Origin: Chiloscyllium plagiosum
Lineage: Eukaryota
Assembly: GCF_004010195.1 (NCBI RefSeq)
Contig: NC_057717.1
Coordinates: 107,321,093 to 107,385,092, forward strand
Reading direction: 5' to 3'
DNA: 64,000 nucleotides
The notes under the pieces were generated by a model. The model saw only the letters and a list, made by a program, of their open reading frames with translations, searched no databases and had not been told where the DNA came from. The position numbers were made by a program, and so were the translations under genes. Positions 13,128-61,710 of the stretch are shown here, piece by piece. How positions within the stretch are numbered: the stretch's first letter is position 1; each line of letters begins with the position of its first letter.

Positions 13128-13630
13128 AGTGTGTTACTGGAAACGCACAGCAGGTCAGGCAGCATCTGAAGAGCAGAAAAATTGACTTTTTGTGTCAGAG
13201 CTCTTCATCAGGAATAAGGTTGAGAGATTCGGGGGGGGGGGGGGGGGAGAGGTGGAGAGATAAATGGGAGAGGGTGGGGCTGGGGAGAAGGTAGCTGAGA
13301 ATGCAATAAGTGGATGAAGGTGGGGATAAAGGTGATAGATCAGAGAGGAGGGTGGAGTGGGTAGGTGGGAAGGAAAAGGGAGATTGACAGGTGGGACAGG
13401 TTATCAGGGCAGTGCTGAGTTGGAAGGTTGGAACTGGGGTAAGGTGGGGGGGAGGGGAGGGAGAGGAGAAATGAGGAAACTAGTAAAGTCCACATTGATG
13501 CCCTGGGGTTGAAGAGTTCTGAGGCAGAAGATAAGGCATTCTTCCTCCAAGCGTCAGATAGTGAGGGAGTGGCGATGGAGGCGGCCCAGGACCTGCATGT
13601 CCTTGGCAGAGTGGGAGGAGGAGTTGGAGT
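13128..13630 (-). mobile_element. Penelope-like element 3' fragment inserted in the Gypsy integrase
   Basis: pLTR-type sequence cagcaggtcaggcagcatc..., purine-rich tract and ggcccaggacctgcatgtccttggcagagtgg, all shared with 48478-49963. Confidence 0.75.
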
Positions 13631-14735
13631 TTCTTCAAGCCTGCCTTCAAAATTTGGAATGCTCTTTCTGCCAGGCCATTGGATGATGAATAGTATGGAG
13701 CTGTACTGAGATGTCGAATCCCATTCGACTTTAGGAAATACTCAAGATCCCTGCTAGTATACAATGGCCTGTTATCTGTGACCAACGTTTCCAGGAGTCT
13801 GTGCATTGTAAAAGATGTGTATAGGTTTTGAAACATTGTTCCCATTTTTGACAAATGATCTCTATGCACGATAAATGTGGGTGTCTACAATAACTAAGAA
13901 CATTTAGCCCATGAAAGGACCTGCATAGTCAACATGTAACTGAGTCCAGCATTTACCTGGCAATTCCCATGAATGTAGAGGAGCTGCTGGCTGTAATTTT
14001 TGTCCTTGTTGGAACTCTGGGTACTGCCCACCAACACGGCTATGTCTGCAACCAAGGCTGGCCACCAAACATAACATCTCGCAAACATCTTCATATTGGA
14101 GACCCCTGAATGGCTCTGGTAAATTCAGCCACTATTTGCCAGCAACCTTTGCTCGGAACACTCTTGCTCCCCATAATAATATGCCGTCTTCTATGTAATC
14201 TGGTCTCTCTGGGTCCAAAAAATTTCAGTTTTGATTGTGATGGTCCTTTGGTTTCCCCAACTGCCACTAACTGTTTTAGTTTTGCCGGGACCAGATCTTT
14301 CTGTGTCCAAAGTCTACTATTGTCAGCTGTGACTGGAAGTGTGTCCAGAAAACTTAAAACCATTACGGATTGTTCTAGTGGCGGTATCACCGGTGGTGTA
14401 TGTGCCAGTGGGAGATGCCTCAATGCATCCACATTTGTTACCAGGCCTCCTGGACGGTGTTCCAACTCGTAATTATACGCAGTTAGTATAAAAGTCCATC
14501 GCTGAATTCGACCTGCAGTTATTGGCAGCTCAGCCTTGTCCTCTTTAAGTAGACCAAAGGAGGGTTTGTGGTCTGTTATTATTAGAAATTTACATCTGTA
14601 AAGGTATTGGTTGAACTTCCTGACTTCAAATAAGACCACCAAACCTTCCTTCTCTATCTGGGCATATTTACTCTCTGCATTAGCCAAAGTCCTTGATGTT
14701 GGGCATTCCTTTTCATTGGACCACCCATAAGCTAA

Positions 14736-14950
14736 GCAAAAGTGAGGACTGCAGATGCTTGAGATGAGAGTCGAGAGTGTGATGCTGGAAAAGCACATCA
14801 GGTCAGGCAGCATCCGAGGACCAGGAAAATTGACGCTTCTGGCAAAAACCCTTCATCAGGAGGGCTGATGAAAGGCTTTTGCCCGCAATGTCGATTTTCC
14901 TGCTCCTTGGGTGCTACCTGACCTGCTGTACATATCCAGCACCACACTCT
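14736..14950. mobile_element. Short fold-back (Penelope pLTR-derived) insertion with 15-bp TSD
   Basis: TSD ccacccat(a/g)agctaa at 14721-14735 and 14951-14965; about 85-bp inverted arms, each containing CTGATGA. Confidence 0.8.
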
Positions 14951-15029
14951 CCACCCATGAGCTAATACCAGTCCAATGCTATACAAGGAGGCATCGCATA
15001 TCAATACCAGATCTTGCTTGGGAGCACAA

Positions 15030-15337
15030 TTAGATTACATTTCAGTGTGGAAACAGGCCTTTCGGCCCAACAAGTCCACACTGACCCGCCGAAGCGCAAC
15101 CCACCCATACCCCTACATTTACCCATTACCTAACACTACGGGCAATTTAACATGGTCAATTCACCTGACCTGCACATCTTTGGACTGTGGGAGGAAACCG
15201 GAGCACCCAGACGAAACCCACGCAGACACGGGGAGAATGTGCAAACTCCACACAGTCAGTCGCCTGAGGCGGGAATTGAACCCGGGTCTCAGGCACTGTG
15301 AGGCAGCAGTGCTAACCACTGTACCACCGTGCCGCCC
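15030..15337 (-). mobile_element. HE1-type tRNA-derived SINE (V-SINE family)
   Basis: gggcggcacggtggtacagtggttagcactgctgcctcacag head, V-domain, taatcta tail; cacaat on both sides. Confidence 0.9.
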
Positions 15338-16967
15338 ACAATGTGCCAACACCTTCAAGAATGATATCTGTTTCTTCACTTCCTTGGCTACACAACCATT
15401 TCCAAGGCTGACCTTTTTTTTAAAGAGTTGGTGCAAAACCTAAAACCATTACGAATTGTTCTAGTGGCGGTATCAATGCCCAACATCAAGGACTTTGGCT
15501 AATGCAGAGAGTAAATATGCCCAGATAGAGAAGGAAGGTTTGGTGGTCTTATTTGAAGTCAGGAAATTCAACCAATACCTTTACAGATGTAAATTTCTAA
15601 TAATAACAGACCACAAACCCTCCCTTGGTCTACTTAAAGAGGACAAGGCTGAACTGCCAATAACTGCAGGTCGAATTCAGCGATGGACTTTTATACTAAA
15701 TTAGGATGGAGGTCAGGTTATGTATGAACTTTCTGTAATAGTTTACCAGCCAAGGAAACACCTAAGCTTTTTTACAGATGTGGGAACCAGGGAACCTTTG
15801 ATCGGCCTTACTTTATCTTCCAATAGATGTAACCTGGTCTCATCGACTCTGTAGCCCAAGTAGGACACTTGGGATGCCTGCAACACACATTCCTCCTTCC
15901 TAAGATGTACATATACCTTGAAGAAACATCTAATGAATATGTCCAAGTTCTCTGACTGCTCCTTATTGGTCTTCACTGTTATTAGCATATCATCTAGATT
16001 TATGGCGACCTGGGGTAGACCATATAAAATATTCTCCATTGCCTGCTGAAAAATTGCACAGGCTATTTGCCAGTCTCATATATTGGGATAAAATATTATG
16101 GGTATTAATTGTAGTACACATCTGGGAATCCTCATCTAACCACAATTGCAAGTATGCATAGCTCATGTCTAACTTTGTGAAGGACAGCCCCCATACTATC
16201 TTTGCATATAAATTCTCTATGTGTGGGATTGGGTATTTATCCAGCTGCAAAAAACAGTTTCTATTTGCAATCCCTAAAAAGGTGAACCAACCCATCAGGC
16301 TCCACAATTGTTATGACCAGTGCTGCCTACTCCGCTAAGTGGATTGGTTTGTTGATTTGTTTGCTTTCCAGCCTTCTGATTTCTGTCTCTACTTTTGCCC
16401 ATAAAGCAAATGGCACTGGCCAGGCCTCACAGAATCGTGGAATTGCTTCCTGGTCCACATGCAAGGTGGCCTTGACTCATTTGGTAGCCCCTACATCTTC
16501 CTAAAAGACTTTCAAGTATTTAATTATGACTTCACTTCGGCAGCCATTTTCTAATTGAAAAATGTTGAGCGAATCTAGGTGAATATTTCTCAAGTAATTT
16601 CGCTCCATCAAGCTTGGACTGGTAACTGAACCAGTTGCTTCTCATAAGTGACCGAAACTGAAGTTGTATCCTTAATCTGTAGAGGTTCCCTAGTATTGGT
16701 TCTCAGTCTAGCTGAGGTCTTGTCAAACTTAAGATTGGAATTCAGAGCGAATTTTGTTGAAGACTAGTTCTGCAATCACTGATATGGCTGCGTCAGTATT
16801 GACCATCATTCAAACTGGATGACTGTTTAACCAGATGTTTATTTTGATTGGTTTGGACAAGTAAAGATTCCCAAATAATGGCATGACGCCAGAAATGCTT
16901 ATCCCAAACTCAAAGACGACTGTTGCGAGAGAGTTTCTTTGGGAACATGCTTTACTCTCATCGCCAC

Positions 16968-21300: not shown

Positions 21301-22520
21301 CACTTACATTTATTATTGATTATCAATACCCTATCCTCATTCTCTGGAGGATCAATAATTATTTTATTTACTCTTTTCCTTTTTGGATGCCTGCAGAAAT
21401 TCCTGCTGCCTATATTTACATTTCTACCAAGCTTCCTCATGTATTGCAATTTATTTCTGCTGATTAACCTTTTAGTGATTCTGACCTATTCTGCATGTTC
21501 TGACCAATTATCTGACCTACCACACAGCTTTATGTAATTACATGCTTTTTCTTTATAAGTTTGATGCTTTCAAAATCTTGTTTAGTTAATCACAGGTGGT
21601 GGCTTATCTTTTTGGATATTTTCTTTGCATGCTCATTCTGAGTATTCTGAAACTTTCCCTTAACTGCCTCCCTATTGATTTATCTCCTCGCCTTGTATCC
21701 AATTTCATTTCAGTGAGTGCAGCTTCATGCCCGCATGGTTATCCTTATTGAAGTTTAAATACTAACCTCAGACCCATTCTTCTCCCTTTCAGACTGGATG
21801 TAAAATCCAATCATATTGTGATGCTGCTAATTGGAGATGGCTTTACATAGCCATTACTAATTTTGCCTCATTAATAAATCCTTTATAACTTGCTCTTTAG
21901 TTGATTCGAGGACATGCTGTACATAGAAACTAACTTGAGAACATTAGATAAGCTTTTCATTCAGAAGTTACAGTGGTTATTTCCAGCTCTTTATCACCAG
22001 CATCCAACTTCATCCTACATTATAGTTCCTCCCAGGGATCTGTGGACCATATCTACTAATTTTTGTTTCCTGTCTATTCCTTATATGTACCCAAACAAAC
22101 TCTATAGTATGATATCCTAAACCAAGGTCATCTCTATCTACTGCAGGGCCACTTTTGATTAAGATCTGATGCCTCCACTTTTGCCTAGCTTGTAATTCTT
22201 ATTGAATGCCATATATTCCTCAAATCTGCAGGACCACTCTGGATGCAGCCATTCCATAATGGCTATCAGAGCACATTTCTTTATTTCAATGATCACTATC
22301 AATTTACAGTCACAGAGTCATACAGCATAAAAACAGACACTCCAGTTCAAATCGTCCATGCCAACCATGTTTCCAAAACTAAAGAAGTCCCACTTGTCTG
22401 TATTTGGCCCATATCCCTCTAAACCTTTCCTATTCATATACCTATCCAAATGTCTTTTAAACATTTTAACTGTACTTACATCCACAACTTCCTCTGGTAG
22501 TTCATTCCAGATATTCACCA

Positions 22521-24424
22521 CAGGAGTATACTTAAGGGGGAAATCAGGAGGGCAAAAAGGGGACATGAGATAGCTTTGGCAAATAGAATTAAGGAGAATC
22601 CAAAGGGTTTTTACAAATACGTTAAAGACAAAAGGGTAACTAGGGGGAAAATAGGGCCCCTCAAAGATCAGCAAGGCGGCCTTTGTGTGGAGCTGCAGAA
22701 AATGGGGGAGATACCAAACAAGTATTTTACATCAGTATTTATTGTGGAAAAGGATATGGAAGATATAGACTGTAGGGAAATAGGTGGTGACACCTTGCAA
22801 AATGTCCAAATTACAGAGGAGGAAGTGCTGGATGTTTTGAAATGCATAAAGGTAGATAAATCCCCAGGACCTGATCAAGTGTATCCTACAACTCTGCAGA
22901 AAGCTAGAGAAGTGATTGCTGGGCCTCTTGCTGAGATATTTGTATCATCGATAGTCACAGGTGAGGTGCCGGAAGACTGGAGGTTGGCTAACGTGGTGCC
23001 ACTGTTTAAGAAGGGTGGGAAGGACAAGTCAGGGAAGTATAGACCAGTGAGCCTGACGTCGGTGGTGGGCAAGTTATTGGAGGGAATCCTGAGGGACAGG
23101 ATGTACATGTATTTGGAAAGGCAAGGACTGATTAGGGATAGTCAACATGGCTTTGTGCATGGGAAATCATGTCTCACAAACTTGATTGAGTTTTTTGAGG
23201 AAGTAACAAAGAGGATTGGTGAGGGCAGAGCGGTAGATGTGACCTATATGGATTTCAGTAAGGCGTTCGACAAGGTTCCCATGGGAAATTGATTAGCAAG
23301 GTTAGATCTCATGGAATACAGGGAGAACTAGCCATTTGGATACAGAACTGGCTCAAAGGTAAAAGACAGAGGGTGGTGGTGGAGGGTTGTTTTTCAGACT
23401 GGAGGCCTGTGACCAGTGGAGTGCCACAAGGATCGGTGCTGGGTCCTCTACTTTTTGTCATTTACATAAATGATTTGGATGTGAGCATAAGAGGTACAGT
23501 GTGTAAGTTTGCAGATAATCCCAAAATTGGAGGTGTAGTGGACAGCGAAGAGGGTTACCTCAGATCACAACAGGATCTGGACCAGATGGGCCAATGGGCT
23601 GAGAAGTGACGGATAGAGTTTAATTCAGATAAATGCGAGGTGCTGCATTTTGGGAAAGCAAATCTTAGCAGGACTTATACACTTAATGGTAAGGTCCAAG
23701 GGAGTGTTGCTGAACAAAGAGACCTTGGAGTGCAGGTTCATAGCTCATTGAAAGTGGAGTCGCAGGTAGATAGGATAGTGAAGAAGGCGTTTCATATGCT
23801 TTTGTTTATTGGCCAGAGTATTGAGTACAGGAGTTGGGAGGTCAGGTTGCAGCTGTACAGAACATTGGTTAGGCCACTGTTGGAATATTGCACGCAATTC
23901 TGGTCTCCTTCCTATCGGAAAGATGTTGTGAAACTTGAAAGGGTTCAGAAAAGATTTACAAGGATATTGCCAGGGTTGGAGGATTTGAGCTATAGGGACA
24001 GGCTGACCAGGCTGGGGCTGTTTTCCCTGGAGAGTCATAGGCTGAGAGATGACCTTATAGAGGTTTACAAAATTATGAGGGGCATGGATAGGATAAATAG
24101 ACAAAGTATTTTCCCTGGGGTTGGGGAGTCCAGAACTGGAGGGCATAAGTTTAGGGTGAGAGGGGAAAAATATAGGAGAGACCTATGGGGCGTCTTTTTC
24201 ACACAGAGGGTGGTACGTGTAAGGAATGAGCTGCCAGAGGAAGTGGTGGAGGCTGATACAATTGCAACATTTAAAAGGAATGGGTATATAAATACGAAGG
24301 GTTTGGAGAGATATGGGCCGGGTGCTGGCAGGTGGGACTAGATTGGGTTGGGATATCTGGTCGGCATGGATGGGTTGAACCGAAGTGTCTGTTTCCATGC
24401 TGTACATCTCTATGACTCTCTATG
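22521..24424 (+). mobile_element. Relatively young 5'-truncated CR1 (HER1-like) LINE, ORF2 RT pseudogene
   Basis: Three consecutive ORFs (22576-23292, 23289-23609, 23640-24341) give a near-continuous RT: KSPGPD, YRPVSLTS, YMDFSKAFDKVP, GVPQGSVLGP, KFADN. One frameshift and one stop; tail ctctatgactctctat. Confidence 0.92.
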
Positions 24425-33064: not shown

Positions 33065-34650
33065 AAGTCATAGATGTAGAGTCATACAGCACGGAAACAG
33101 ACCCTTCGGTCCAACTAGTCCACGCTAACCATATTCCCAAACTAAACTAGTCCCACATGCCTGCATGTGGGCTATATCCCTCTAAACCTTTCCTATTCAT
33201 GTACCTGTTCATCTTTTAAATGTTCTAGCTGTACCTTCACCAGCACTTTCTCTGGCAGTTCAATCCACATATGAACCACTCTCTGCGTAAAACGTTGTCC
33301 TTCATGTCCTTTTGAAATCTTTCCCGTCCCACCTTAAAAATATGCCCCCTAGTTTTGAACTTTCCCACCTTAGAGAAAAGACCCTTGCCATTCACCTTAT
33401 CTATGCCCCTCATGATTTTATAAACCACTATAAGATCACCCCTCAACCTCCTATGCTCCAGTGAAAAAAGTCCCAGGCTATCTTTATAACTTAAACCTTC
33501 CATTCCTGGCAACATCCTGATAAATCTTTTCTGAACCCTCTCCAATTTAATAATACCCTTTCTACAGCAGGGTGACCAGAGGTGTACACAATACTCCAGA
33601 ACAAGCTTTATCAACACCCTGTACAACCTCAACATGTCGTCCCAAATCCTATACTCAAAGGTCTGAGCAAATCTTTATTCATTCATGGGATGAGGGCGTT
33701 GCTAGCTAGGCAGCATTTATTGTTGAGCCTAATTGCCCAGAGGGCAGTTAAGAGTCAACCACATTGCTCTGGGTCTGGACTCACATGTAGGCCAGAACAG
33801 GTAATGATGGCAGTATCGTTCCCTAAAGGACATGAGTGAACCAGATGGGTTTTTCTGACAATCAACATGGTCATTAGACTTTTAATTCCAGAATTTTAAA
33901 AATTGAATTCAAAATCCACTGTATGCCGAACCTAGGTCCTTAGAACATTATCTGGGTCTCCTGATTAACAGTAAAACCATTAGACCATCATCTCCACTAG
34001 GCAAGTATGCTAAATGGCTTCCTAACCACCCTTTCTCCATGTGATACAAATTTTTAAAAAATTATATTTCTAAACTGCTAGATCTCTCTCTACTATAACA
34101 TTACCCAGGGTCCTACCATTAATTCTATAAGTCTACCCTTGTTTGTTTTACCAAAATGCAATACCATGCATCTATCCAAATTAAACTCCTCAGTCCACTG
34201 ACCCAATTGATCAAGATCTCTTTGTAATCTTAGATTACCTTCTTCGCTGTCCACGATGCCATCAATTTTGGTGTCATCTACTAACTTACTCTCCATGTCT
34301 CCTAAATTCTCATCCAAATCATTTATATAAATGACAAACAAAAGTGGATCGAGTACCGATCCCTGTGGAACAACACTGGTCACAGGCCTCCAGTCTGAAA
34401 AACAACCGTCCACCAACACCCTCTGTCTCCTAAGATCAAGCCAATTTTGTATCCAGTTCACAAGTTCTCTCTGAATCCCTTGTAATCTAAATTTACTAAT
34501 TAGTTTACCATGTGGAACTTTGTCAAAGACTTTACTAAAGTCCATGTAAACAATGTCTACCGCTCTGACTTCATCAATCTTTTTCATTATCTCCTCAAAA
34601 AAACTCAATCAAGTTTGTGAGACGCAATTTTCTTCACACAAAACCATGCT
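33065..34650 (-). mobile_element. CR1 LINE RT/3' end, interrupted by a SINE
   Basis: ORFs 34093-34608 (YMDFSKVFDKVPH, VPQGSVL) and 33237-33635 (LEYCVHLWSP). Confidence 0.88.
33675..33997 (-). mobile_element. SINE (third family) whose 3' tail matches the LINE family at 1270-2890 / 59430-61710
   Basis: Minus strand ends gggcaattagg...caataaatgctgcctagctagcaacgccctcatcccatgaatgaataa; partial copy at about 55440-55680. Confidence 0.65.
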
Positions 34651-41559: not shown

Positions 41560-42627
41560 CCACCTTGCTGATCTTTGAGGGGCCCTAGTCTCTCCCTAGT
41601 TACCCTTTTGTCCTTTATGCACTTGTAAAAACTCTTTGGATTCTCCTTAATTCTATTTGTCAATACTATCTCACGTCCCATTTTTGCCCTCCTGAGTTCC
41701 CTCTTAAGTATACACCTGCTTCCTTTATACTCTTCTAAGGATTCACTCGACCTATCCTGTCGCTTCCTTCTTTTTCTTAACCAAACCCTCAATTTCTTTA
41801 GTCATCCAGCATGCCCTATACCTACCCACCTTTCCTTTCACCCTGACAGGAATATACTTTCTCTGGATTCTTGTTATCTCATTTCTGAAGGCTTCCCATT
41901 TTCCAGCCGTCTCTTTACCTGCAAACATCTGCCTCCAGTCAGCTTTCAAAAGTTCTTGCCTAATACCATCAAAATCTATCTGCTGGAGTTATTTTCCCAG
42001 GAGCATCAGTGGCTGAGTGGTGACTTTATAGAGTTTTATAAAATTACAAGAGGCATGGATCAGGTGAATAGTCAAGGTTTCTCCCCAGGGTAGAGGAGTC
42101 CAAAAGTAGAAGGCATAGGTTAAGATGAGAGGGGAAGGATATAAAATGGACCCGAGGGGACTTTTTCACGCAGGATGGTGCAGGTATGGGATGAACTGTC
42201 AGAAGAGCTGGTGGAGGTTGGTGCAATTACAACATTTAAAAGACATCTGGATGGGTATATGAATAGGAAGGCTTTAGAAGGTTATGGGCCAGATGCTGGC
42301 AAATGGGACTAGATGGTTTTCCTCCGGGTGCTTCAGTTTCCTCCTACAGTCCAAAGGATGTGCTGGTTAGGTGAACTGGCCATGCTAAATTGCCCATAGT
42401 GTTCAGGGATGTGTAGGTTAGGTGCATTAGTCAGAGGAAATGTAGACTAATAGGGTAGGGGAATGGATACAGGTGGGAACCCCTTTGGAGTGCCGGTGTG
42501 GATTTGTTGGGCCAAATGGCCTGTTTCCACACTGTAGGCATTCCATGATTCTATGATATCTGGTCGGCATGGAAAAGATGGACCGAAGGGGTCTGTTTTC
42601 CGTGCTGTACAGGTCTATGTCTGTGTC
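41560..42627. mobile_element. CR1 fragments (minus 41560-41975; plus 41985-42627) with a truncated HE1 SINE at about 42316-42556
   Basis: NRIKENPKSFYKCIKDKRVTRE on minus; CR1 3' UTR on plus, split by SINE V-domain and tail, ends directly against the Tigger left end. Confidence 0.8.
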
Positions 42628-42639
42628 ACAACTTTGTTT

Positions 42640-43450
42640 TAACCGGCATCCTGGTCAGCCTGCCCTCTCGACAAACCGCCAAAAATGTTGAGCCAAGTCG
42701 TCAGCGGAGGGTGCGAGTGAGAAGGCTCGCTGCCGGTAGTTCCGTGTTCCGCCGCTGCCGGATCAGTGGCGCGCTTGGCACCTTCCTGCTTCCACTTCCG
42801 CCATATTGTTTGGGAGAGTCAGACAGTGGCGGCGGTTTGTCGCGAGAACAACTGCCCCCGGCGTCCGCCATGACGGAAACTCCGACCGCTCGCTCGAGCC
42901 GCAAACGTAAACGTGTGGTACTGACACTCAAGCAGAAAATAGAAATATGTCAACGGCTTGAGAAGGGAGAGAAGCGCAGTCAGATCATGACCGAGTTCAA
43001 CATTGGCTCGTCCACTATTTATGACATAAAGCGGCAGAAGCAGGAGCTGCTGAAGTTTTACACACTGTCAGAGAGCAGCGGGAGTGCGGATAAGAGGCGC
43101 ACGCTGAAGAAACCCAAACTGGAAGAACTCGACACGGTGTTGTACCAGTGGTTTGCCCTCAAGCGCCTGGAGGGGATTCCGATGACACGGGCGATGCTGA
43201 TCGAAAAGGCCAAGGAGCTGTACACCAAGTTGCAGCTGACTGGCCCTTGCGCCTTTTCTGAAGGCTGGCTCACTTGTTTTAAGTTACGGCATGGCATACG
43301 GCACCTGGACCTGTCAGGGGGGAGCACGGCAGCTGAGTGCCGAGCACAGGGATCGTTGTGTGATCACTTCGCAAAAATCGTTGCTGAACACGGTCTTTCA
43401 CCCGACCAGATCTATAACGCTGATGAGAGCGGGCTGCTCTGGAGATACCT
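42640..43450 (+). promoter_or_regulatory. CpG island / probable promoter of the JRK-like gene, with overlapping ETS and YY1 motifs
   Basis: About 30 CpG counted in 42661-42960, against CpG-depleted surroundings. ACTTCCG (ETS/GABP) at 42794-42800 overlaps CCGCCATATT (YY1) at 42798-42807. Kozak tccgccATG at 42870. Confidence 0.7.
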
Positions 43451-44531
43451 TCCGGAATCAGCTCTGCCAGGTTCTGGTGAGGCTCATGCTGAGGGATTGA
43501 AGAAGAACAAAGATCGGATAACAGTCCTCGTTTGCGCCAATGCCGCTGGAACACACCAGATAAAACTTTTTGTCGTCGGGAAATCCAAGAATCCATGTGT
43601 TTTCAAGAATTTGCGTCACCTACCTGTTGGGTACAGTGCTCAAAGTAATTCATGGATGGACGTTCAATTATTCACTCATTGGTTTCACCACTTTTTTGTC
43701 CCTTCGGTTAAGCAGCATTTCCGAAAGATTGGAAAACCCGAAGACAGCAAGTGTATCTTATTGCTGGATAACTGTAGAGCTCATCCTCCAGAGTCGAAAT
43801 TGGTGTCAGGAAATATATTTGTTATTTATTTACCACTGAAAGTGACTGCGTTAATCCAGCCCATGGACCAAGGGATCATCGAAAATTTAAAGTGTCACTA
43901 CAGAAAAAACTTATTACGTAAACTTTTGAGCAGTAATGAAAAGATTACCAAGTTTCAGAATGTATATACTCTGGAAGATGCAGTGTATAATGTAGCTTGT
44001 GCTTGGAAGTTAGTTAAGCCCCAGACTTTGAGGTGTGCTTGGCATAAATTATTGCCCAATGTAAGTTTATCTTCAGATGAAGAATTCGAAGATTTCAGAG
44101 TTTGTCAGAAGAAAAGTACAGTCATGGAAATGGCTTTGATGATGAAAAATGTGCAAAGTGATGAAAATCTTGTGTGTAAATTTAGTGAACAAGAATTGGA
44201 ACTGTGGGTTGATGTTGATAAAGATGTTAGGCATGTGTTGAATGATGATGAAATAATTAAGACCGCCTTGAATCCAACGAAAGAGAGCGAATCTGAAAGG
44301 AACACTGATGAAGAATTGCATGAAGTGAGGGTTTCTTGGGCTAAGGCGGCAGAGGCCTTTCAGGTGTTGCTTAAATTTGCTGAAACTCAAAATTGCTACA
44401 CCGCGCAAGAAGTCATTCGGTTACATTTACTGCATTCTACATTCTTACAGAAAAAGCAAGATTATTTTAAGCTAGCTGACATTCAGGATTTGTTTAAGAA
44501 AGAAAATGTTGAATCAGGTGGCGATCCTTGA
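42870..44531 (+). CDS. Intact JRK (jerky)-like / Tigger transposase-derived protein, 553 aa, single exon
   Basis: CENP-B-type N-terminal HTH (KRKRVVLTLKQKIEICQRLEKGE); second HTH (LDTVLYQWF...FSEGWLTCFKLRHGI); DDE_1 domain with YNADESGL, LLLDNCRAHP and QPMDQGII (DD32D); JRK-like C-terminal VSWAKAAEAFQVLLKFAETQ. No stops or frameshifts. Confidence 0.93.
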   Translation: MTETPTARSSRKRKRVVLTLKQKIEICQRLEKGEKRSQIMTEFNIGSSTIYDIKRQKQELLKFYTLSESSGSADKRRTLKKPKLEELDTVLYQWFALKRLEGIPMTRAMLIEKAKELYTKLQLTGPCAFSEGWLTCFKLRHGIRHLDLSGGSTAAECRAQGSLCDHFAKIVAEHGLSPDQIYNADESGLLWRYLPESALPGSGEAHAEGLKKNKDRITVLVCANAAGTHQIKLFVVGKSKNPCVFKNLRHLPVGYSAQSNSWMDVQLFTHWFHHFFVPSVKQHFRKIGKPEDSKCILLLDNCRAHPPESKLVSGNIFVIYLPLKVTALIQPMDQGIIENLKCHYRKNLLRKLLSSNEKITKFQNVYTLEDAVYNVACAWKLVKPQTLRCAWHKLLPNVSLSSDEEFEDFRVCQKKSTVMEMALMMKNVQSDENLVCKFSEQELELWVDVDKDVRHVLNDDEIIKTALNPTKESESERNTDEELHEVRVSWAKAAEAFQVLLKFAETQNCYTAQEVIRLHLLHSTFLQKKQDYFKLADIQDLFKKENVESGGDP

Positions 44532-44615
44532 ATGGTAGTGACTCAACCTGATGATCCTAGTAATGTGATTCTGGTGATAATGTTTAAGTTATGTTTTAAG
44601 TCTAATTTACATTTA

Positions 44616-45678
44616 CAGGGGAACCTCAATTATCCGAACGAGATGGGCGGGCACTATTTCGTTCGGATAATTGATTATTCGGTTAATTGATTAAATGCCT
44701 TTCCTCTGGGGCTCAAGAGTTTTTAAAAGTCTGATTCCCATTCAGGAGACTGCAGCAGCACACCAACCCCATCCAACCTCACGCCCCCAACCCCATCCAA
44801 CACCGCCTCCGCTCCAAACCTGTCCAGCTCCACCCTGCCCCTAACCCCATCCAGCCCCGCCCCAATCCCAAGCAAAACTCATCCCACCTCCCCAACTCTG
44901 TCCAACACCGTTTCTTCCCCCCCCGACCCCCCAGTCCGCCCTCACCCCCCTCTCCGGGGCAGCTGGACACCCAACAACAGGACTGCTGCTAGTGTAGCAG
45001 ATGCCTTTTTCTGGTAAGTCTCCAAATAGCGCACGCACGCACAGCCGCAGCCACACATACAACGTTTTGTGGGCGGCACGGTGGCACAGTGGTTAGTACT
45101 GCTGCCTCATAGCGCCAGAGACCTGGTTTCAATTCCAGCCTCAGGTGACTGACTGTGTGGAGTTTGCACGTTCTCCCTGTGTCGGCGTGGGTTTCCTCCG
45201 GGTGCTCCGGTTTCCTACCACAGTCCAAAGATGTACAGGTCAGGTAAATTGGCCATGCTAAATTGCCCTTAGTGTTAGGTAAGGAGTAAATGTAGGGGTA
45301 TGGGTGGGTTACGCTTCGGCGGGTCGGTGTGGACTTGTTGGGCCGAAGGGCATGTTTCCACACTGTAATGTAATCTAAAAAAAACCTTTTGACAGGTTCT
45401 GCCTTTGCCCTATACAGGACAATGTTGGAGAGATTATCTGGGGAAGGGGGGGAGGGTTTAGAGACACCCCTCTGTAGAACTCCAGGGAAAGTGTGGGGAG
45501 AGAGAGGGGATGGGAGGTCAGTTGTTTGGAGACTGTGCCTGTTTAATCACTGTAAACAAAAGACACGATGGCTGTTGGAAACACGTCTTTGATTAAATGT
45601 TTCTATCGGGACCTCGAGATCTCCTTCAGATAATCTGATTTTCGGATAATTGATATTCAGATAATCGAGATTCCTCTA
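44616..45678. mobile_element. Non-autonomous Tigger-type DNA transposon (MITE-like) with TA TSD
   Basis: TA|caggggaacctcaattatccgaa ... ttcagataatcgagattcctcta|TA (18/23 TIR match). ttcggataat subterminal repeats; internal ccaaccccatcc low-complexity tract; nested HE1 SINE. Confidence 0.85.
45071..45377 (+). mobile_element. HE1-type SINE, full length
   Basis: gggcggcacggtggcacagtggttag head to tgtaatgtaatcta tail; approximate TSD aacgttttg/aaccttttg. Confidence 0.9.
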
Positions 45679-48477
45679 TACATTACATTCTATAAGTTTT
45701 ATTTAAGGTATTATTATTTAAGTGATTTATGCTTTAAATAGACTACAACAAACATTTTATTAACCGGCACTTCTGGAACTGGGGTGTGCTGGCTGATCAA
45801 CCAGAATATTTGCTCAACCAGCAGACTCCTGGTTCCTTAGGTGCCACTTAATAAAAAGTTTGCTATATGTGATTGTAATCCACATGCACAGAGAGTGATG
45901 CAAAATATAGTGATGCTGCTCCTTTTGGCAGAAATGTACGAACATACAAACAGATAATTTAGGAGCAACAGTAGGACATGCAGCCCCTCTAGCATGCTCC
46001 ATCATTTGATAGAACTATTTGAGTTGACCATGGCCTCAAACATACATTTCTGCCTACCCCTGATACCATTTCAATCACTTGTTAGTTTTGCATCTGTTTT
46101 TCCTTGCCTTGAGAATGACCCAGCCTCAACTGCTCCCTGTGAAGACATTTCTCGTTCTTTCAAAGACCAGTGGATACAGGCTCAACTTGTTCAACCTTTC
46201 CTTATAAGGTAACTCCCTCATCCCAGGAATCAGTCAAGTTAACCTTGTTTGCACTACTACTTTACATTATTTTTTAAATAAGGAGATAAAAACAATACAA
46301 TACTCCAGATGTGGCCTCAGCGATATTCTCAATAACTGTAGCACAGCTGCCCTACTTTTATTTTCCATTCCTCTGACAATAAACAACAGTATTCAGTTTG
46401 TCTCCTGAAACACTTGTTGTACCTGGATACACACATTTTGTGACTCATGTATCAGGATGCCCAGAACCCTCTGTAGTTCAGAGTTCTACAGTCGTTCTCT
46501 CTATTTAAATAACATGCTGCTTTTCAGTTCTCAACAACAAATTACCCCTTTTAAAGGAACAATATAATCCTCTTTAAAGGGGTAACCCAGGCTTATTAAT
46601 ACAGTCATCAGCTGGAAACTGCAGAAGGAGTACTTGTAACGCTAAACACAACAAATACGATTTGACTGAAGGCACATCCTTTACAGAGACAGGAATGAAA
46701 AAACCAATGGTATTCCCATTGATCAATAAATAATGAACATTATAAAAATTCATCGTTGAGATCTGTCATCTTTTCAAACTTGGATACATTCAAAGAAAGC
46801 TTTTAATGTATTCCACATTTAGATTAATAATTAAATTTTCTTGTTGAATTTGGTCCCAGACCTCAGGGTCACAACCACTGTAGTTCAGCTTTCCTTTCAC
46901 CAGAGGGTGTCACAGCCATAAAGCATGCTGTATTTGGGGTCTGAAACTGCACTTTTCACTATACACAAGGTCCCTGGGTGACACAACAGGTTCCAGTACA
47001 TCCAGAACACATCAGAGCACAGTACAATACTGTAAAATATCTGTTCATAAGTATGTTCGCATGTCAGATCCTTAAAATTAATAGTAATGTGAAATCCCGG
47101 TCTTCAGTATCAGCAATCTTAAATCAGACATTCGTAAAACAGGCACCTCATGGATTTTAAAACAGTTTGAACAATTTACATTTAAATAGCCCATTTATCA
47201 CAAAGAACATCCCATGGATCTTCACCAATAGTGGAAAGCATATCAGATGTTGACCAGGCAAGATTGGAATTGAGAGCAAATGTTCAGAGAAAAAAATGAG
47301 ATTCCAAGACAGATGAAGAGCTTTGTGCAAGTTCAAAAGGGAAGCACAGTAAGCCCAATTTTAAATTGCTTCATTCAGCATCATTGCTCTTTAATACTGC
47401 ACGTATAATGGCGAAGCTATGCACAATTATCATCGGGACATCTGCTTCAGCATTGTTTTGTGCTGGCCAATGTAACATTTCGTGACTTAATGGTAACATT
47501 TTGGAGAAGCCTGTCTCATTCCTCACCTCTCCCTAACTCCTGTCTCCGACTGTCTCCTATATCCTGAATCTCTATCTCCATTTTCGTGACTCTCTCTCTC
47601 CCCATCTCTTCGACTGCTTGATATTCCCCAACTCTCTCTCTCTCTCTCTCTCCCACTCCCCAGCTCACTCCTAATTCCTGACTCCTTCCATCTCTCACTC
47701 TGTCTCCTACTCCCTGACTCAAGTAGTGCTCCATTGAGAGCCAAATTTCTCACTCCTGTCATTGTTACATCTGCAACAAAGGGAGACCCATTTTAATTTG
47801 GCAAAACTAGCAGCTTTAGTGTCAGTCACCATGTGAATCCTTTATGGATATCCTGTGCTAATATGAAATGCACCATCCACCCACCCCCAACAAAATTAAA
47901 ACTCCCTCACAGTCTCTCAAACCCAGCCCCCAACATCTGAGAACCCGCCAATACCCCAGATTGCCATCCATTTGTCCTCCTTCAGTAACTGGCTGTAGTC
48001 CAGCAGCGGCCATTGCTTGAACCTGGGCTGCTGGGACTACAGAACTGCCTGCAAACCAAACGGTCTGCAGAATTCTGAGGTGGCACTTCTTCTCTAGGTG
48101 GACCAGGTGGAGAGATGTATCACCCTTAGTCAGTTAACACTTTGAGTGATCTATAGCTATGGGGCAGCCAGTTTTAGCGAGGTGATATTCTGGTGGTCTA
48201 GCCTCGCACTTGTGTGGTGCAAATGTTATTTGCCATTTTTCAACTTAAGACTAGATATTGTCTCAGTCTCATTGCATTTGGTATGGGCTGCTTCAGTTTT
48301 TGAGGAATTGTGAACGGTGTTAAATATTGTGTAATCGTTGGCCAACAGCCCCACTTCTGACCTTATGGTAGAGGGAAGGTCATTGATAAAGCAGCTAAAG
48401 GTGGTTGGGCCAAGGACACTATACTGAGGAACTCTTGGAGAGACATCGTGGAACTGAGATGACTGACCAACAGCCAC

Positions 48478-49963
48478 GAAGAGTGTGGTGCTGGAAAAGC
48501 ACAGCCGGTCAGGCAGCATCTGAGGAACAGGACAGTATATTTTGGGCATAAGCCCTTCATCAGGAATGAGGCTTGTGGGCCAAGGGGGCTGAGAGATAAA
48601 TGGGAGGGGATTGGGTGGAAGGTAGCTGAGAATGCAAGAGGTAGATGAAGGAAGGAGTGAAAGTGATAGGTCAGAGAAGAGGGTAGAGCAGATAGGTAGG
48701 AAGAAAGATGGGCAGGTAGGACTGTTCAAGAGAGCAGTACTAAGTTGGGAGGTTGCGACTGGGATAAGGTGGGGAGAGGGGGAATGCGGAAACTGGTGAA
48801 ATCTATATTGTTTGGAGGGTCCCAAGATGGAAGATGAGGCATTCTTCTGGGCATCAGGTGGTTAGGGTTTGGTGATAGAGGAGGCCCAGAACCTGCATGT
48901 CCTTGGCAGAGTGGAAGGGAGAGTTGGAGTGTTCAGCTACAAGGCAGTGGAGTTGGTTGGTGCAGGTGTCCCAGAGATGTTCTCTGACATGATGTGCAAG
49001 TTGGCGTCCTGTCTCCCCAGTGTAGAGGAGACCACATCGGGTGCAATGGATGACGTGTAGAAGTACAGGTAAATTTCTGTTGGATGTGCAAGGGGTGGGA
49101 ATGGAAATATAACTCTGGTAGTGGGGTCTATTTGTAATTGGAGTGGGGTCTCTGTAGGTGGTGGGAATGGTGGAGGTTGGTGGTGTGGAAGGTGAAGACC
49201 AGCGGGGTTCTGTCCTTGTTGCGGTTAGAAGGGTTGGGTTCAAGGGTGGAGGTGGGGAAGTGGAGGAGATGCGCTGGAGGACATTGTCGACCATGTGAGA
49301 GGAGAAATTGCGGTCTTTGTAGAAGGAGGCCATCTGGGATGTTCTATGGTGGAATTAGTCCTCCTGGAAGCAGATGCGGTGGAGGCAGAGGAATTGGGAA
49401 TAACAGAGAGCATTTTTACAGGAGGCAGGGTGGGAGGAGGTGTAGTTCAAGTAGTTATGGGAGTCGGTGGGTTTGTACTGGATGTCTGTGTTGAATAGAT
49501 TGCCAGAAATGGAGATGGAGAGCCCCAGGATGGGAGGGAGGTGCGGGTCATGCAAGTCCTGGGCCTCCTCCACTGCCAAACCCTAACCGCTCAATGCCTG
49601 GAAGAAGTACGTCTCATCTTCCGTCCTGGGACCCTCCAACCACACAGGACCAATGTGAATTTCACCAGTTTCCCACTCGGACCTCCAGCACTGCCTCAGG
49701 AGACTGTCTGTGTGGAGTTCGTACATTTTCCCCATGTCTGCGTGGGATTCCTCCCACAATCCAATGATGTGCAGGTCGGGTGAATTGGCCATGCTAAATT
49801 GCCCATAATGTTAGGTGCATTAGTCAGGGGTAAATATAGGGTCGGGGAATGGGTTTGGGTAGGTTGCTCTTTGGAGGGTCAGTGTGGACTTGTTGGGTCA
49901 AATGGCCTGTTCCTATACTGTAGGGAATCAAATCTAATCTGCAGTCCTCGCTCTCTCTTGATA
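48478..49963 (-). mobile_element. Penelope-like element (GIY-YIG fragment) with inverted 3' segment and a nested partial HE1 SINE, inserted in a LINE remnant
   Basis: ORF track: VIHCTRCGLLYTGETGRQLAHHVREHL and YKPTDSHNYLNYTSSHP. Inverted piece at 49541-49680; aacagccac on both flanks. Confidence 0.82.
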
Positions 49964-50377
49964 AACAGCCACTACTTTCTTATGTGGCAGGTATGACTCC
50001 AAACACTGGAGAACTTTTCCCTCGAATCCCAATAAATCCAGTTTTGCTAGAGTTCCTTAATAACACACTTAATCAGATGTGGCCTTGATGTCAAAGGTTG
50101 TTACTCACTTCATCTCTGGAATTCAGATGTTTTATCCATGGTTGAACCAAGGCTGCAATGAGTTCAGGCAGAGTGGCCCTGGCAGAGCCCAAACTGGGCA
50201 TCAATAAATAATGCAATCTCAAAGGATATGGGGAAAACAGCAAAATGATATTGAAGTAGATCAGGCATTATCTCACTGAATGGTGCAGTGATCTCAAAGG
50301 CTGAATGGCCTCTCCTGCTCTTTTTATTATGTTCTTATTCTAAAATACAATGCATTCTTTAAATTTGTTGTACTTAC

Positions 50378-59429: not shown

Positions 59430-61710
59430 CATGACATCAGGTCAAACATGGGCAAGAAAATCTCCTGCTGATTACCACCTACCTCACCTCCCCCCACCCC
59501 CGACTGATGAATCAGAGGCCCTCAATGTTGAATATCACTTGGAGGCAACAATGATGGTGGCAAAGGAACAGAATGTACTCAGAATTGGGAATTTCACTGT
59601 CCACCACCAGCAGCACTACTATAGACTGATCTGATCGAGTTCTATTGGAAATAGTTGCCAAACTGAATTGTGAGGAAATCAATAAAAAAGGGAAAAAAAA
59701 ACATACTCCATCCTCCCCAATCTGCCTGCTGCAGATGTGTCTGTCCATTACAGTATTGATAGGAGTGTCAACTGCACAGTCCTCCATCATGGTGTGTGGC
59801 ATTATCATTGTGCTGAATGGGATAAACTTTAAACAGATCTAGCAATACGAGGCTGCATACCCATGAGGCACTATGGGCCATCAGCAGCATAATTGTTTTT
59901 GAACCTAATGGCCCAACATATATCCCCACTTTACCATGACGTCAGGGGATCAAAATAAAGAGAGAAAATATTGAAGAAACAACACAGATCTGGCAGATCT
60001 ATGGAAAGAGAAATGCTTTAAATGATTATTCTTCAGTGCCAGTGGATCAACCCTGGTTCAAAGGAGTGCAGGATATACCAGGAGCAGCATCGGCATATCT
60101 AAAAATGAGTTAACAACCCGGTGAAGATCAAAGCCAGGGCTATTTGCTTACCAAACAGCAAGTGATAAACGGAGCTAAGCAATTCCACATCCAACAGATA
60201 AGATTTAAGCTCCACAGTCCTCAGCCAATTTGATTCACTCCACACAATATCAAGAAAGCTCTGGATACTGCAATGGCTGTGGGCCCTGAAAACATTCCAG
60301 CAATAATTCTGAAGGTGTGTGCATCAGAACTTTTAGTTCCCATAGCTAAGCCATTCTAGGACAGATACAACACTGGCATCTACCCAATGGTGTAGAAAAT
60401 TGACCAAAAAGCGGGACAAATCCAACCCAGCCAATTACCAGCTCATTTTATTCTCAATCATCAGTAAAATGATAGAAGCTGTCACAAATAGCACTTGCTT
60501 AGCAATAACCTGCTCAAGGACCATTCAGTTCCTGATCTCATCACAGCTTTAGTTCAAACATTTACAAAACTGATGAATACTAGAGGTGAGGTGAGATTGA
60601 CTGTCCTTGACATGAAGGGCACATTTAACCAAGCGTGACATCAAGAAGCCCTGATAAACCAAGGGTCAAAGGCAAATCAAGGAGAAAATTCTCCAATTGT
60701 TGGAGTCGTACCTGGTACAAAAGAAAATGGTTGTGATTGTTGGAAGTCAGTCGTCTCACTTCCAGGATCCTCAGCAGTGTCCTAGGCCCAACCATCTTCA
60801 TTTGCTTCATCAATGACCTTCCTTCCATCATAAGGTCAAAAGTGGGGATGCTTGCTGATGATTACACAATATTCAGCATCATCCATGACTCCTCAGACAC
60901 TGAAGTAATCCATGTCCAAATGCAGCAAGACCTGGACAATATCCAGATTCGGGCTGAGAAGTGGCAAGTAATATTCACATTACATAAGTGCGAGGGAATG
61001 TCCATCCCCAACAAGAGAGAATCTAACCATCACTAATTCACATTCAAAGGCATCATTATCATTGAATCTCTCACTATCAAAATCCTGGGGGTTGCCATTC
61101 ACCAGAAAAAAGAATCAGACTGGCCACATAAATACTGGACAGAGGCTCAGAATCCTGCGGCAAGTAACTCATGTCCAGATTCCTCAAAACCTGTTCACCA
61201 TCTGCAAGTCATAAGAAATATGTGATGGAATACTTGCCTCTTACTTAGATGAATGCAACAACCCCCACCAAGCCTGTCACCATCCATCCAGGACAAAGCA
61301 GTCCACTCAATTGGCACCACATCCACAAACTTTCACACCATTCATCACCAACACTCAGTAGCTCCAGCAGTCCATCTATAAGATGCAATGCAGAAATTTA
61401 TTAAGGCTCCTTAGACAGTACCTTCCAAACCCATCAACACTACCACCTGAAAAGGCGAGGCAGCAGATACATGGGAACACCTACAAGTCTCCTTCCAAGC
61501 CAAATACCATCCTAACTTGGAAATATATTGCCCCTCCTTCAGTATCACTGGATCAAACTCCCTCCCTAACAGCACTATGGGTGTTCTATTAGCAATGACT
61601 GCAGTGGTTCAAGAAGGCGGCTCACTACCATTTTCTCATGGCCATCTAGGGATGGGCAATAAATGCTGGTTCAGCCAGTGATACCCACACCCCACGAATG
61701 AACAAAAGCA
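59430..61710 (+). mobile_element. Decayed non-LTR retrotransposon, same family as 1270-2890
   Basis: SVLGPTIFICFINDLPSIIRSKVGMLADDYTIF; 3' tail gggcaataaatgctgg...cacgaatgaacaaaa. Confidence 0.78.

Follow-up and report, generated by a model that had tools for sequence, protein, structure and literature searches.

A JRK-like Tigger transposase gene of orectolobiform sharks, probably domesticated independently of mammalian JRK

The window considered here, a 64,000-nucleotide stretch of the genome of the bamboo shark Chiloscyllium plagiosum (assembly GCF_004010195.1, contig NC_057717.1, positions 107,321,093 to 107,385,092 of the forward strand), contains a Tigger-type DNA transposon of the pogo superfamily with an intact open reading frame (ORF) for a protein resembling mammalian JRK. 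The ORF, a single exon for 553 aa running from ATG to stop, has no other long ATG frame beside it at the locus (Table 1). It encodes the domain order of pogo/Tigger transposases, CENP-B_N followed by HTH_Tnp_Tc5 and DDE_1, all three over the Pfam curated cut-offs, and the only solved structure related by sequence is the CENP-B DNA-binding domain (1HLV; residues 14-140, E 3e-8). The motifs YNAD, LLLD and QPMD correspond to D185, D300 and D333, with 32 residues separating the last two (DD32D). These aspartates fall in the triad columns of the family, where D is found in 110, 118 and 93 of the 122 aligned rows, respectively; the third column has E in 20 of the 122, the primate and rodent JRK rows being among these. 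An earlier note on this DNA had described the stop-free frame and the three aspartates, and had given E for the third triad position of human JRK, all of which agrees with the present results. Its statement that every other transposon ORF in the window is broken also holds, as the domain-bearing frames are all fragments: retroelement domains (reverse transcriptase, RNase H or integrase) occur in 8 of the 101 other frames with 85 aa or more, and the longest of the eight has 263 aa. From its sequence and those of its relatives, the gene is probably a lineage-specific domesticated Tigger transposase that arose independently of mammalian JRK.

Both ends of the element recur in a family of miniature inverted-repeat transposable elements (MITEs) of the same genome, which argues for a real transposon origin. 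The right end (45794-45869) is found in at least 39 other places at 83-92%, a lower bound because 40 candidates were scored of 254, and the left untranslated stretches 42630-42686 and 42693-42738 are found in 13 other places. In four loci (L024, L025, L026 and L028) the left-end and right-end sequences are directly joined and the ORF region is gone, so these are internally deleted MITE derivatives of the element. In an alignment of 15 copies, those most like the window copy, the family ends read TA followed directly by CAGCAAAC; TA followed by a CAG-type end is the usual Tigger form. The best pair of these copies is 86.6% alike with a median of 77%, and the sampled MITE copies are old.

The ends of the window copy are altered in comparison with this family. 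Its terminal inverted repeats (TIRs), 42630-42648 and the reverse complement of 45842-45860, match at 15 of 19 positions, as the earlier note had claimed. The left terminus reads CACAAC without a preceding TA and without CAG, and the right terminus reads TAGCAAAC (reverse complement), then TA, with A in place of the G found in 9 of the 15 aligned copies; the ends are eroded, again as had been proposed. Against the majority of the 15 copies, the right end differs at 6 of 74 and 4 of 50 positions (8%), within the span of the copies themselves (3-26%), and has 8-bp and 29-bp deletions. The right limit of the element is placed at about 45867 because family similarity ends at 45868. A family right end further downstream was not found beyond 45868 in six copies, five of which score at shuffle level and the sixth above the shuffle 95th percentile and below the shuffle maximum. 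An AATAAA motif at 45850 lies inside the right TIR region.

Table 1. Features of the locus (window coordinates, except for the last row) and of a second Tigger-derived ORF of the same genome.
Feature	Position	Strand	Remarks
Repeat tail adjoining the left end of the element	42314..42626	+	resembles 3' half of the SINE-like repeat 45069-45378
CpG island, presumed promoter	42511..43600	.	1090 bp, GC 0.54, observed/expected 0.87, 68 CpGs
Tigger element	~42627-45867	+	roughly 2.2 kb minus nested insert
Element 5' end	42627..42869	+	degraded left TIR (from ~42627) and 5' untranslated region; family matches
Transposase-derived ORF	42870..44531	+	single exon, ATG to stop, 553 aa; stop codon within coordinates
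CENP-B_N helix-turn-helix DNA-binding domain	42903..43058	+	residues 12-63; Pfam PF04218, E 3.9e-18
HTH_Tnp_Tc5 DNA-binding domain	43122..43304	+	residues 85-145; Pfam PF03221, E 1.3e-13
DDE_1 catalytic domain	43509..44042	+	residues 214-391; Pfam PF03184, E 6.2e-49
Catalytic codons	43422-43424; 43767-43769; 43866-43868	+	D185; D300; D333
GTAAGT splice-donor-like site	44061..44066	+	after codon N397 (AAT, then GTAAGT), where Rhincodon X2 exits the ORF
Nested Tigger-type MITE	44616..45678	.	TA duplications 44614-15 and 45679-80; inverted arms I5 at 89%
SINE-like interspersed repeat inside nested MITE	45069..45378	+	~310 bp; 89% over 319 bp to L025, 84% over 310 bp to L028
Element 3' end	45693..45867	+	subterminal family sequence 45693-45747; left-TIR-like segment 45748-45793; right TIR region 45794-45867
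Flank homologous to Rhincodon X2 alternative last exon	46860..46916	+	AG acceptor 46858-59; single-copy DNA
Second intact Tigger-derived ORF	L002 1492-3285 = C4:39073453-39075066		597 aa; counterpart of XP_020373306.1

The assembly holds one ORF-bearing copy of the element, by protein and by DNA search, and only deleted MITE derivatives are dispersed. A six-frame protein search of the 3.56-Gb assembly, in which weak matches may be missing owing to a stricter first look, returned the locus itself at 100% and a next match at 37%, and a search with the ORF DNA returned the ORF and one 93-bp match at 78%.

The protein search gave 449 proteins at E <= 1e-10, of which the best 120 were examined and are referred to in the following. 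The top match is a hypothetical protein of Chiloscyllium punctatum (GCC36032.1, 553 aa, 96%), and the next is a 'jerky protein homolog' of the whale shark Rhincodon typus (gene of XP_048474049.1). Its isoform X1 (588 aa) is identical at 476 of 565 positions (84%) with two gaps, both in-frame, and keeps the triad; the stop codon of the window ORF aligns to Cys in X1, the frame of which extends 22 residues further. Other cartilaginous fishes (Narcine, Leucoraja and Pristiophorus) show 47% at most and fall in other clades, and homologues of 84-96% are confined to orectolobiform sharks among the matches listed. Shorter orthologue fragments in other sharks were not found among 88 matches at E <= 1e-20, none of which is above 63% identity.

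The position of the element also appears to be common to the window species and Rhincodon. The Rhincodon isoforms X1 and X2 part after 396 identical residues, and a splice-donor-like site lies in the window ORF where X2 leaves it. The 21-residue tail of X2 matches the window flank on the same strand, 1 kb past the element, at 17 of 19 residues (tblastn, E 1.9e-8; next best E 0.26), and the flank from 46700 to 47060 matches itself only in the genome. On the simplest reading, the insertion would predate the split of the two shark families because the whale-shark gene sits by the orthologous flank. As to the synteny in other sharks that the earlier note proposed to check, one predicted exon suggests a collinear single-copy flank in Rhincodon. 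In the window, the X2-like exon has a stop at its eighth codon; splicing from the donor at 44061 to the acceptor at 46859 would give a protein of ~404 aa, shortened by the C-terminal 155 residues, and such a C-terminally truncated isoform might be conserved between the window species and Rhincodon.

There are signs that the ORF is under constraint, judged by protein-level proxies in place of orthologue codons, most of which favour it. The C. punctatum protein differs at 22 of 553 residues without any indel, and none of its replacements falls in the 171 family-conserved columns (conservation of 80% or more over the family), while 22 fall in the 377 others. The same avoidance is seen with Rhincodon X2, with replacements in 15 of 165 conserved columns versus 53 of 252 others (permutation p 1e-4). 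X1 differs at 73 of 552 aligned residues (13%), distributed unevenly between DDE_1 (9%), CENP-B_N (6%), the linker 146-213 (22%) and the N-terminus (70%), and replacements are fewer inside the Pfam domains (29 of 291 positions) than elsewhere in the protein (44 of 261; p 0.023). When a neutral divergence of 8% was simulated with substitutions only, indels not being counted, the frame stayed open in 0.6% of 20,000 runs. The non-coding ends carry deletions, whereas the ORF and its Rhincodon homologue have in-frame indels only.

A CpG island covers the 5' end of the element and the first 730 bp of the ORF. While the observed/expected CpG ratio is 0.24 over the whole window, this is the only stretch of at least 300 bp in which it is above 0.6. 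In a globally methylated vertebrate genome, a CpG island points to long-term hypomethylation in the germ line, as at active promoters, and the composition suggests that 42511-43600 has been in such a promoter-like state. Of 24 sequencing runs listed for this DNA, 20 contain the whole stretch or a part of it (17 at least half), under three organism labels and from 7 studies, and no RNA run is listed among those 20.

As to the relation to JRK, further matches come from coelacanth and alligator (58%), turtles (50-56%), a marsupial (50%), placental JRK (44-47%) and arthropod Tiggers (43-48%). In the full-length rows of placental JRK this identity extends over 92-99% of the query, in accordance with the end-to-end resemblance stated in the earlier note. 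The tree methods differ in how firmly they place the shark proteins. With FastTree (122 rows), the shark clade stands beside a coelacanth/reptile/mammal JRK-like group with a support of 93, and a quick IQ-TREE run (43 rows chosen from 123, with X1 replacing X2) gives the same placement with a value of 97 in the Shimodaira-Hasegawa-like approximate likelihood ratio test (SH-aLRT). In a careful IQ-TREE run on the same 43 rows, the shark link to the JRK group is below 80% bootstrap, and a clade holding JRK (Alligator sinensis, Latimeria_b, turtles and mammals; 99/95) excludes the sharks. By these trees, the sharks are neither inside nor firmly outside the JRK lineage.

In a survey of these genes, mammalian JRK is dated to the mammalian ancestor, with a DD32D/E triad and a ratio of non-synonymous to synonymous substitution rates (Ka/Ks) of 0.207 (PMC7386202), which bears out the view of the earlier note that JRK is regarded as a mammalian domestication. 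The same survey mentions JRK 'pseudogenes' in cartilaginous fish, and the whale-shark 'JRK' row among the supplement matches listed is XP_020373306.1 ('JRK-rhityp'; PMC7386202). It also describes an alligator 'Tig1-like' transposon (Alsi/Almi-Tig1-like) of 2.5 kb with 9 copies, a 597-aa transposase and TA duplications (PMC7386202, supplementary file 3). As we translate it, the ORF start printed there agrees with the N-terminus of the A. sinensis protein among the matches to the shark gene (P0004, 597 aa, 58%), which appears to be the transposase of this element. The printed TIR aligns to seven of eight shark ends, each with a score that no more than 16 of 1000 shuffles attain, and the eighth is a mis-cut slice. 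Among the matches listed, the nearest non-shark relative thus appears to be a TIR-bearing alligator Tigger transposon. Since its TIRs are homologous to those in the shark, the shark gene would come from a lineage still mobile in several vertebrate groups. Mammalian JRK would be another product of this lineage. Independence of the two retentions is the simplest reading, since the shark copy remains embedded in an identifiable transposon that has MITE relatives, and its nearest relative outside sharks appears to be an alligator transposon. No paper on the window gene was found in a literature search on Tigger domestication in sharks, as far as titles and the beginnings of abstracts tell.

The shark gene can be compared with several known systems. 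It shares with mammalian JRK the same three Pfam domains in the same order, the DD32D/E spacing (PMC7386202) and the presence in a single copy; unlike JRK, it is embedded in a transposon that can still be recognised by its TIRs and its MITE relatives, is excluded from the supported JRK clade, and has D at the third triad position in place of the E of primates and rodents. The alligator Tig1-like element resembles the shark family in TIRs that start with CAGCAAA and end with CCGGCA and in the TA duplication, and the window element in size (2.5 kb versus ~2.2 kb in the shark, minus the insert), while what is printed of it shows 9 copies with intact TIRs, in contrast to the single shark copy with altered termini that is conserved across species. 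CENP-B and the TIGD/JRKL genes are transposase-derived single-copy host genes with N-terminal CENP-B-type DNA-binding domains like those of the shark protein; they are separate domestication events, and CENP-B, TIGD3, TIGD4 and TIGD5 have no recognisable triad (PMC7386202), whereas the three aspartates are kept in the shark. A second Tigger-derived ORF of the same shark genome (contig C4) has an intact 597-aa frame with the same domain order and is also present in Rhincodon (XP_020373306.1), but is only 37% identical to the window gene and roots outside the whole JRK-like group. Among the supplement matches listed, the whale-shark 'JRK' of the 2020 paper (PMC7386202) is therefore a different protein from the window gene.

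The history of the locus may be pictured as follows. The window gene would be the sole surviving ORF-bearing copy of a JRK-like-lineage Tigger transposon, which was fixed at a single locus and lost its mobility before the bamboo-shark/whale-shark split and has since been kept as a host gene. The predicted protein keeps two N-terminal helix-turn-helix domains, an RNase-H-like DDE_1 domain with three aspartates, and an acidic C-terminal part. Transcription presumably starts from the CpG island formed by the 5' end of the element itself. The most likely role of the protein would be sequence-specific DNA binding, with TIR-like sites as putative natural targets, present in the old MITE copies of the family, which number in the hundreds, and an ability to cleave DNA is possibly retained.

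Several observations weigh against retention as a host gene. The intact triad and the recognisable TIRs are compatible with a not yet domesticated transposon as well. The 15 aligned MITE copies were those most like the window copy, of at least 254, and younger subfamilies could be missed; part of the 8% divergence of the window end from the MITE majority could be older than the insertion. The shared locus depends on a single exon, of 19 residues, in a predicted gene model. In the comparison with C. punctatum, the Pfam domains show no sparing (11 of 291 versus 11 of 261, p 0.83), and 17 of the 22 differences lie within the first 213 residues, the CpG-island part, so that uneven mutation could mimic part of the pattern of constraint. 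Two short non-coding proxies differ from Rhincodon by 8 in 42 codons (19%) versus 13% for the ORF, and the overall constraint may therefore be weak. A rival idea is that the locus is the last autonomous Tigger copy and no host gene, selected for transposition until recently or still moving MITEs in trans. The intact DDD triad, the recognisable TIRs, the cognate MITE family, the possible weakness of constraint and the close relationship to bona fide alligator transposons (9 copies) all lend themselves to it. This is nevertheless an unlikely explanation, because there is one copy without ORF-derived fragments elsewhere, the sampled MITEs are old (at most 86.6% alike), the termini are altered, and the Rhincodon locus appears to be occupied, where a mobile element is not expected to have held one locus since the split. 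Shark genomes evolve slowly, and a neutral relic whose frame has remained open by chance might also be imagined, the more so as 19 of 78 other pogo-like matches in the genome are without a stop inside the matched stretch; the rarity of open frames in the simulation, the contrast between several deletions in the non-coding ends and in-frame indels only in the coding sequences, and the replacements avoiding conserved columns leave very little probability to it.

It is also highly improbable that the gene is a true orthologue of mammalian JRK, derived from one domestication in the jawed-vertebrate ancestor and followed by many losses. The maximum-likelihood topology, which sets the sharks beside the coelacanth/reptile/mammal JRK-like clade in the FastTree and SH-aLRT analyses, and the DD32D spacing in both (PMC7386202) are consistent with it. 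In the careful tree, however, this grouping drops to less than 80% bootstrap and the sharks are excluded from the JRK clade; coelacanth and crocodilians have several copies, the A. sinensis protein being apparently the transposase of a transposon in the printed supplement; and other cartilaginous fishes show no orthologue above 63% identity among the matches listed. The TIRs and the MITE relatives at 83-92% would moreover be too well kept for ~450 million years of neutral decay at the rate we assume. Human and other mammalian JRK is, as we take it, located away from any PDE4 gene, which also speaks against orthology. An independent, lineage-specific domestication is favoured over these explanations, and the corresponding idea of the earlier note is largely upheld by the single copy, the eroded ends, the signs of constraint and the Rhincodon locus, except that a firm placement in the JRK lineage was not obtained.

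Vertebrates are known to have domesticated pogo/Tigger transposases repeatedly, but the JRK lineage stands in print as a mammalian event; with the shark locus, cartilaginous fishes would provide an independent capture from this transposon lineage. As the transposon ends and the MITE offspring are still legible, the locus offers an unusual opportunity to learn for which binding sites a domesticated transposase was made and if it is still able to cut them. A bolder proposal, which we regard as rather doubtful, is that the Tigger transposase has stayed catalytically competent as a host gene of orectolobiform sharks, with its own TIRs and over 250 cognate MITE sites still readable in the genome. 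If so, domestication would be caught midway, and the protein could act at MITE ends by cutting or bridging the DNA, in the manner of a programmed nuclease or of an organiser of chromatin tied to the MITE network. For annotation, the label 'jerky protein homolog' outside mammals mixes transposons with host genes.

Other repeats lie in and beside the element. The nested MITE has Tigger-like ends, TA followed by CAGGGGAACCTC, with a 19-nt near-perfect hairpin just within its left end (44626-44644 / 44656-44674, 95%), and its right end recurs in locus L028. The earlier note had seen a MITE with a short interspersed nuclear element (SINE) inside it; the nesting stands, but its placement in the 3' flank does not, since the MITE sits between the stop codon and the right TIR. 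ARAGORN and Rfam found neither a tRNA head nor an RNA family in the SINE-like repeat. The repeat tail at the left end of the element, a putative CR1 tail in the earlier note, shares direct repeats D2, D3 and D5 with it at 79-88%, and 42552-42622 of this tail is 76-83% identical to three other loci. At the right end, 45748-45793 is a left-TIR-like segment in direct orientation, in place of ~85 bp of family subterminal sequence; together with the right TIR it forms a 124-bp palindrome, and TA dinucleotides flank 45748-45867, possibly a separate mini-MITE inserted at the element's terminus. The right TIR as a mere part of an unrelated palindrome was rejected because the outer arm of the palindrome is the family right end.

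The earlier note had placed the gene in a PDE4 intron. This is not confirmed, as 0 of 64 PDEase_I matches for catalytic exons lie on the window contig and no PDE exon lies within the window; a PDE catalytic exon set is on C99572, an unplaced contig. Near the window, PDE4_UCR exons are the sole host exons found, with two of eight matches on the window contig, on opposite strands, 191 kb (+) and 335 kb (-) upstream. These exons belong to one paralogue (C8:106986444-566 (-) and C8:107130160-267 (+), 144 kb apart), with the matching catalytic exons on C99572, and the arrangement looks like an assembly gap or misjoin within this PDE4 gene.

Some further observations concern transposon-derived sequences in general. 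Several other pogo-like matches of the genome have open frames of 500-640 aa (e.g. C28:40288662, C1:9045590 and C30:29407255), and the genome may hold many more retained pogo-derived genes. At two triad motifs, the second Tigger-derived ORF has D in the window genome and N in the printed Rhincodon XP_020373306.1 (LLLNNC and QPMNQ). Among the jerky-like transposase proteins, Pelodiscus P0010 and Geotrypetes P0042 have a KRAB domain (PF01352) and are host-transposase fusions in a turtle and a caecilian. Within the window, the region 48000-50000 has a G+C content of 0.50 and a GC skew of +0.32, with several frames of 90-211 aa on both strands that have no Pfam match. Broken pieces of retroelement pol genes (integrase, RNase H and reverse transcriptase) are found as short frames at 13483-16075 (-), 22501-23606 (+), 34096-34608 (-) and 60737-61033 (+).

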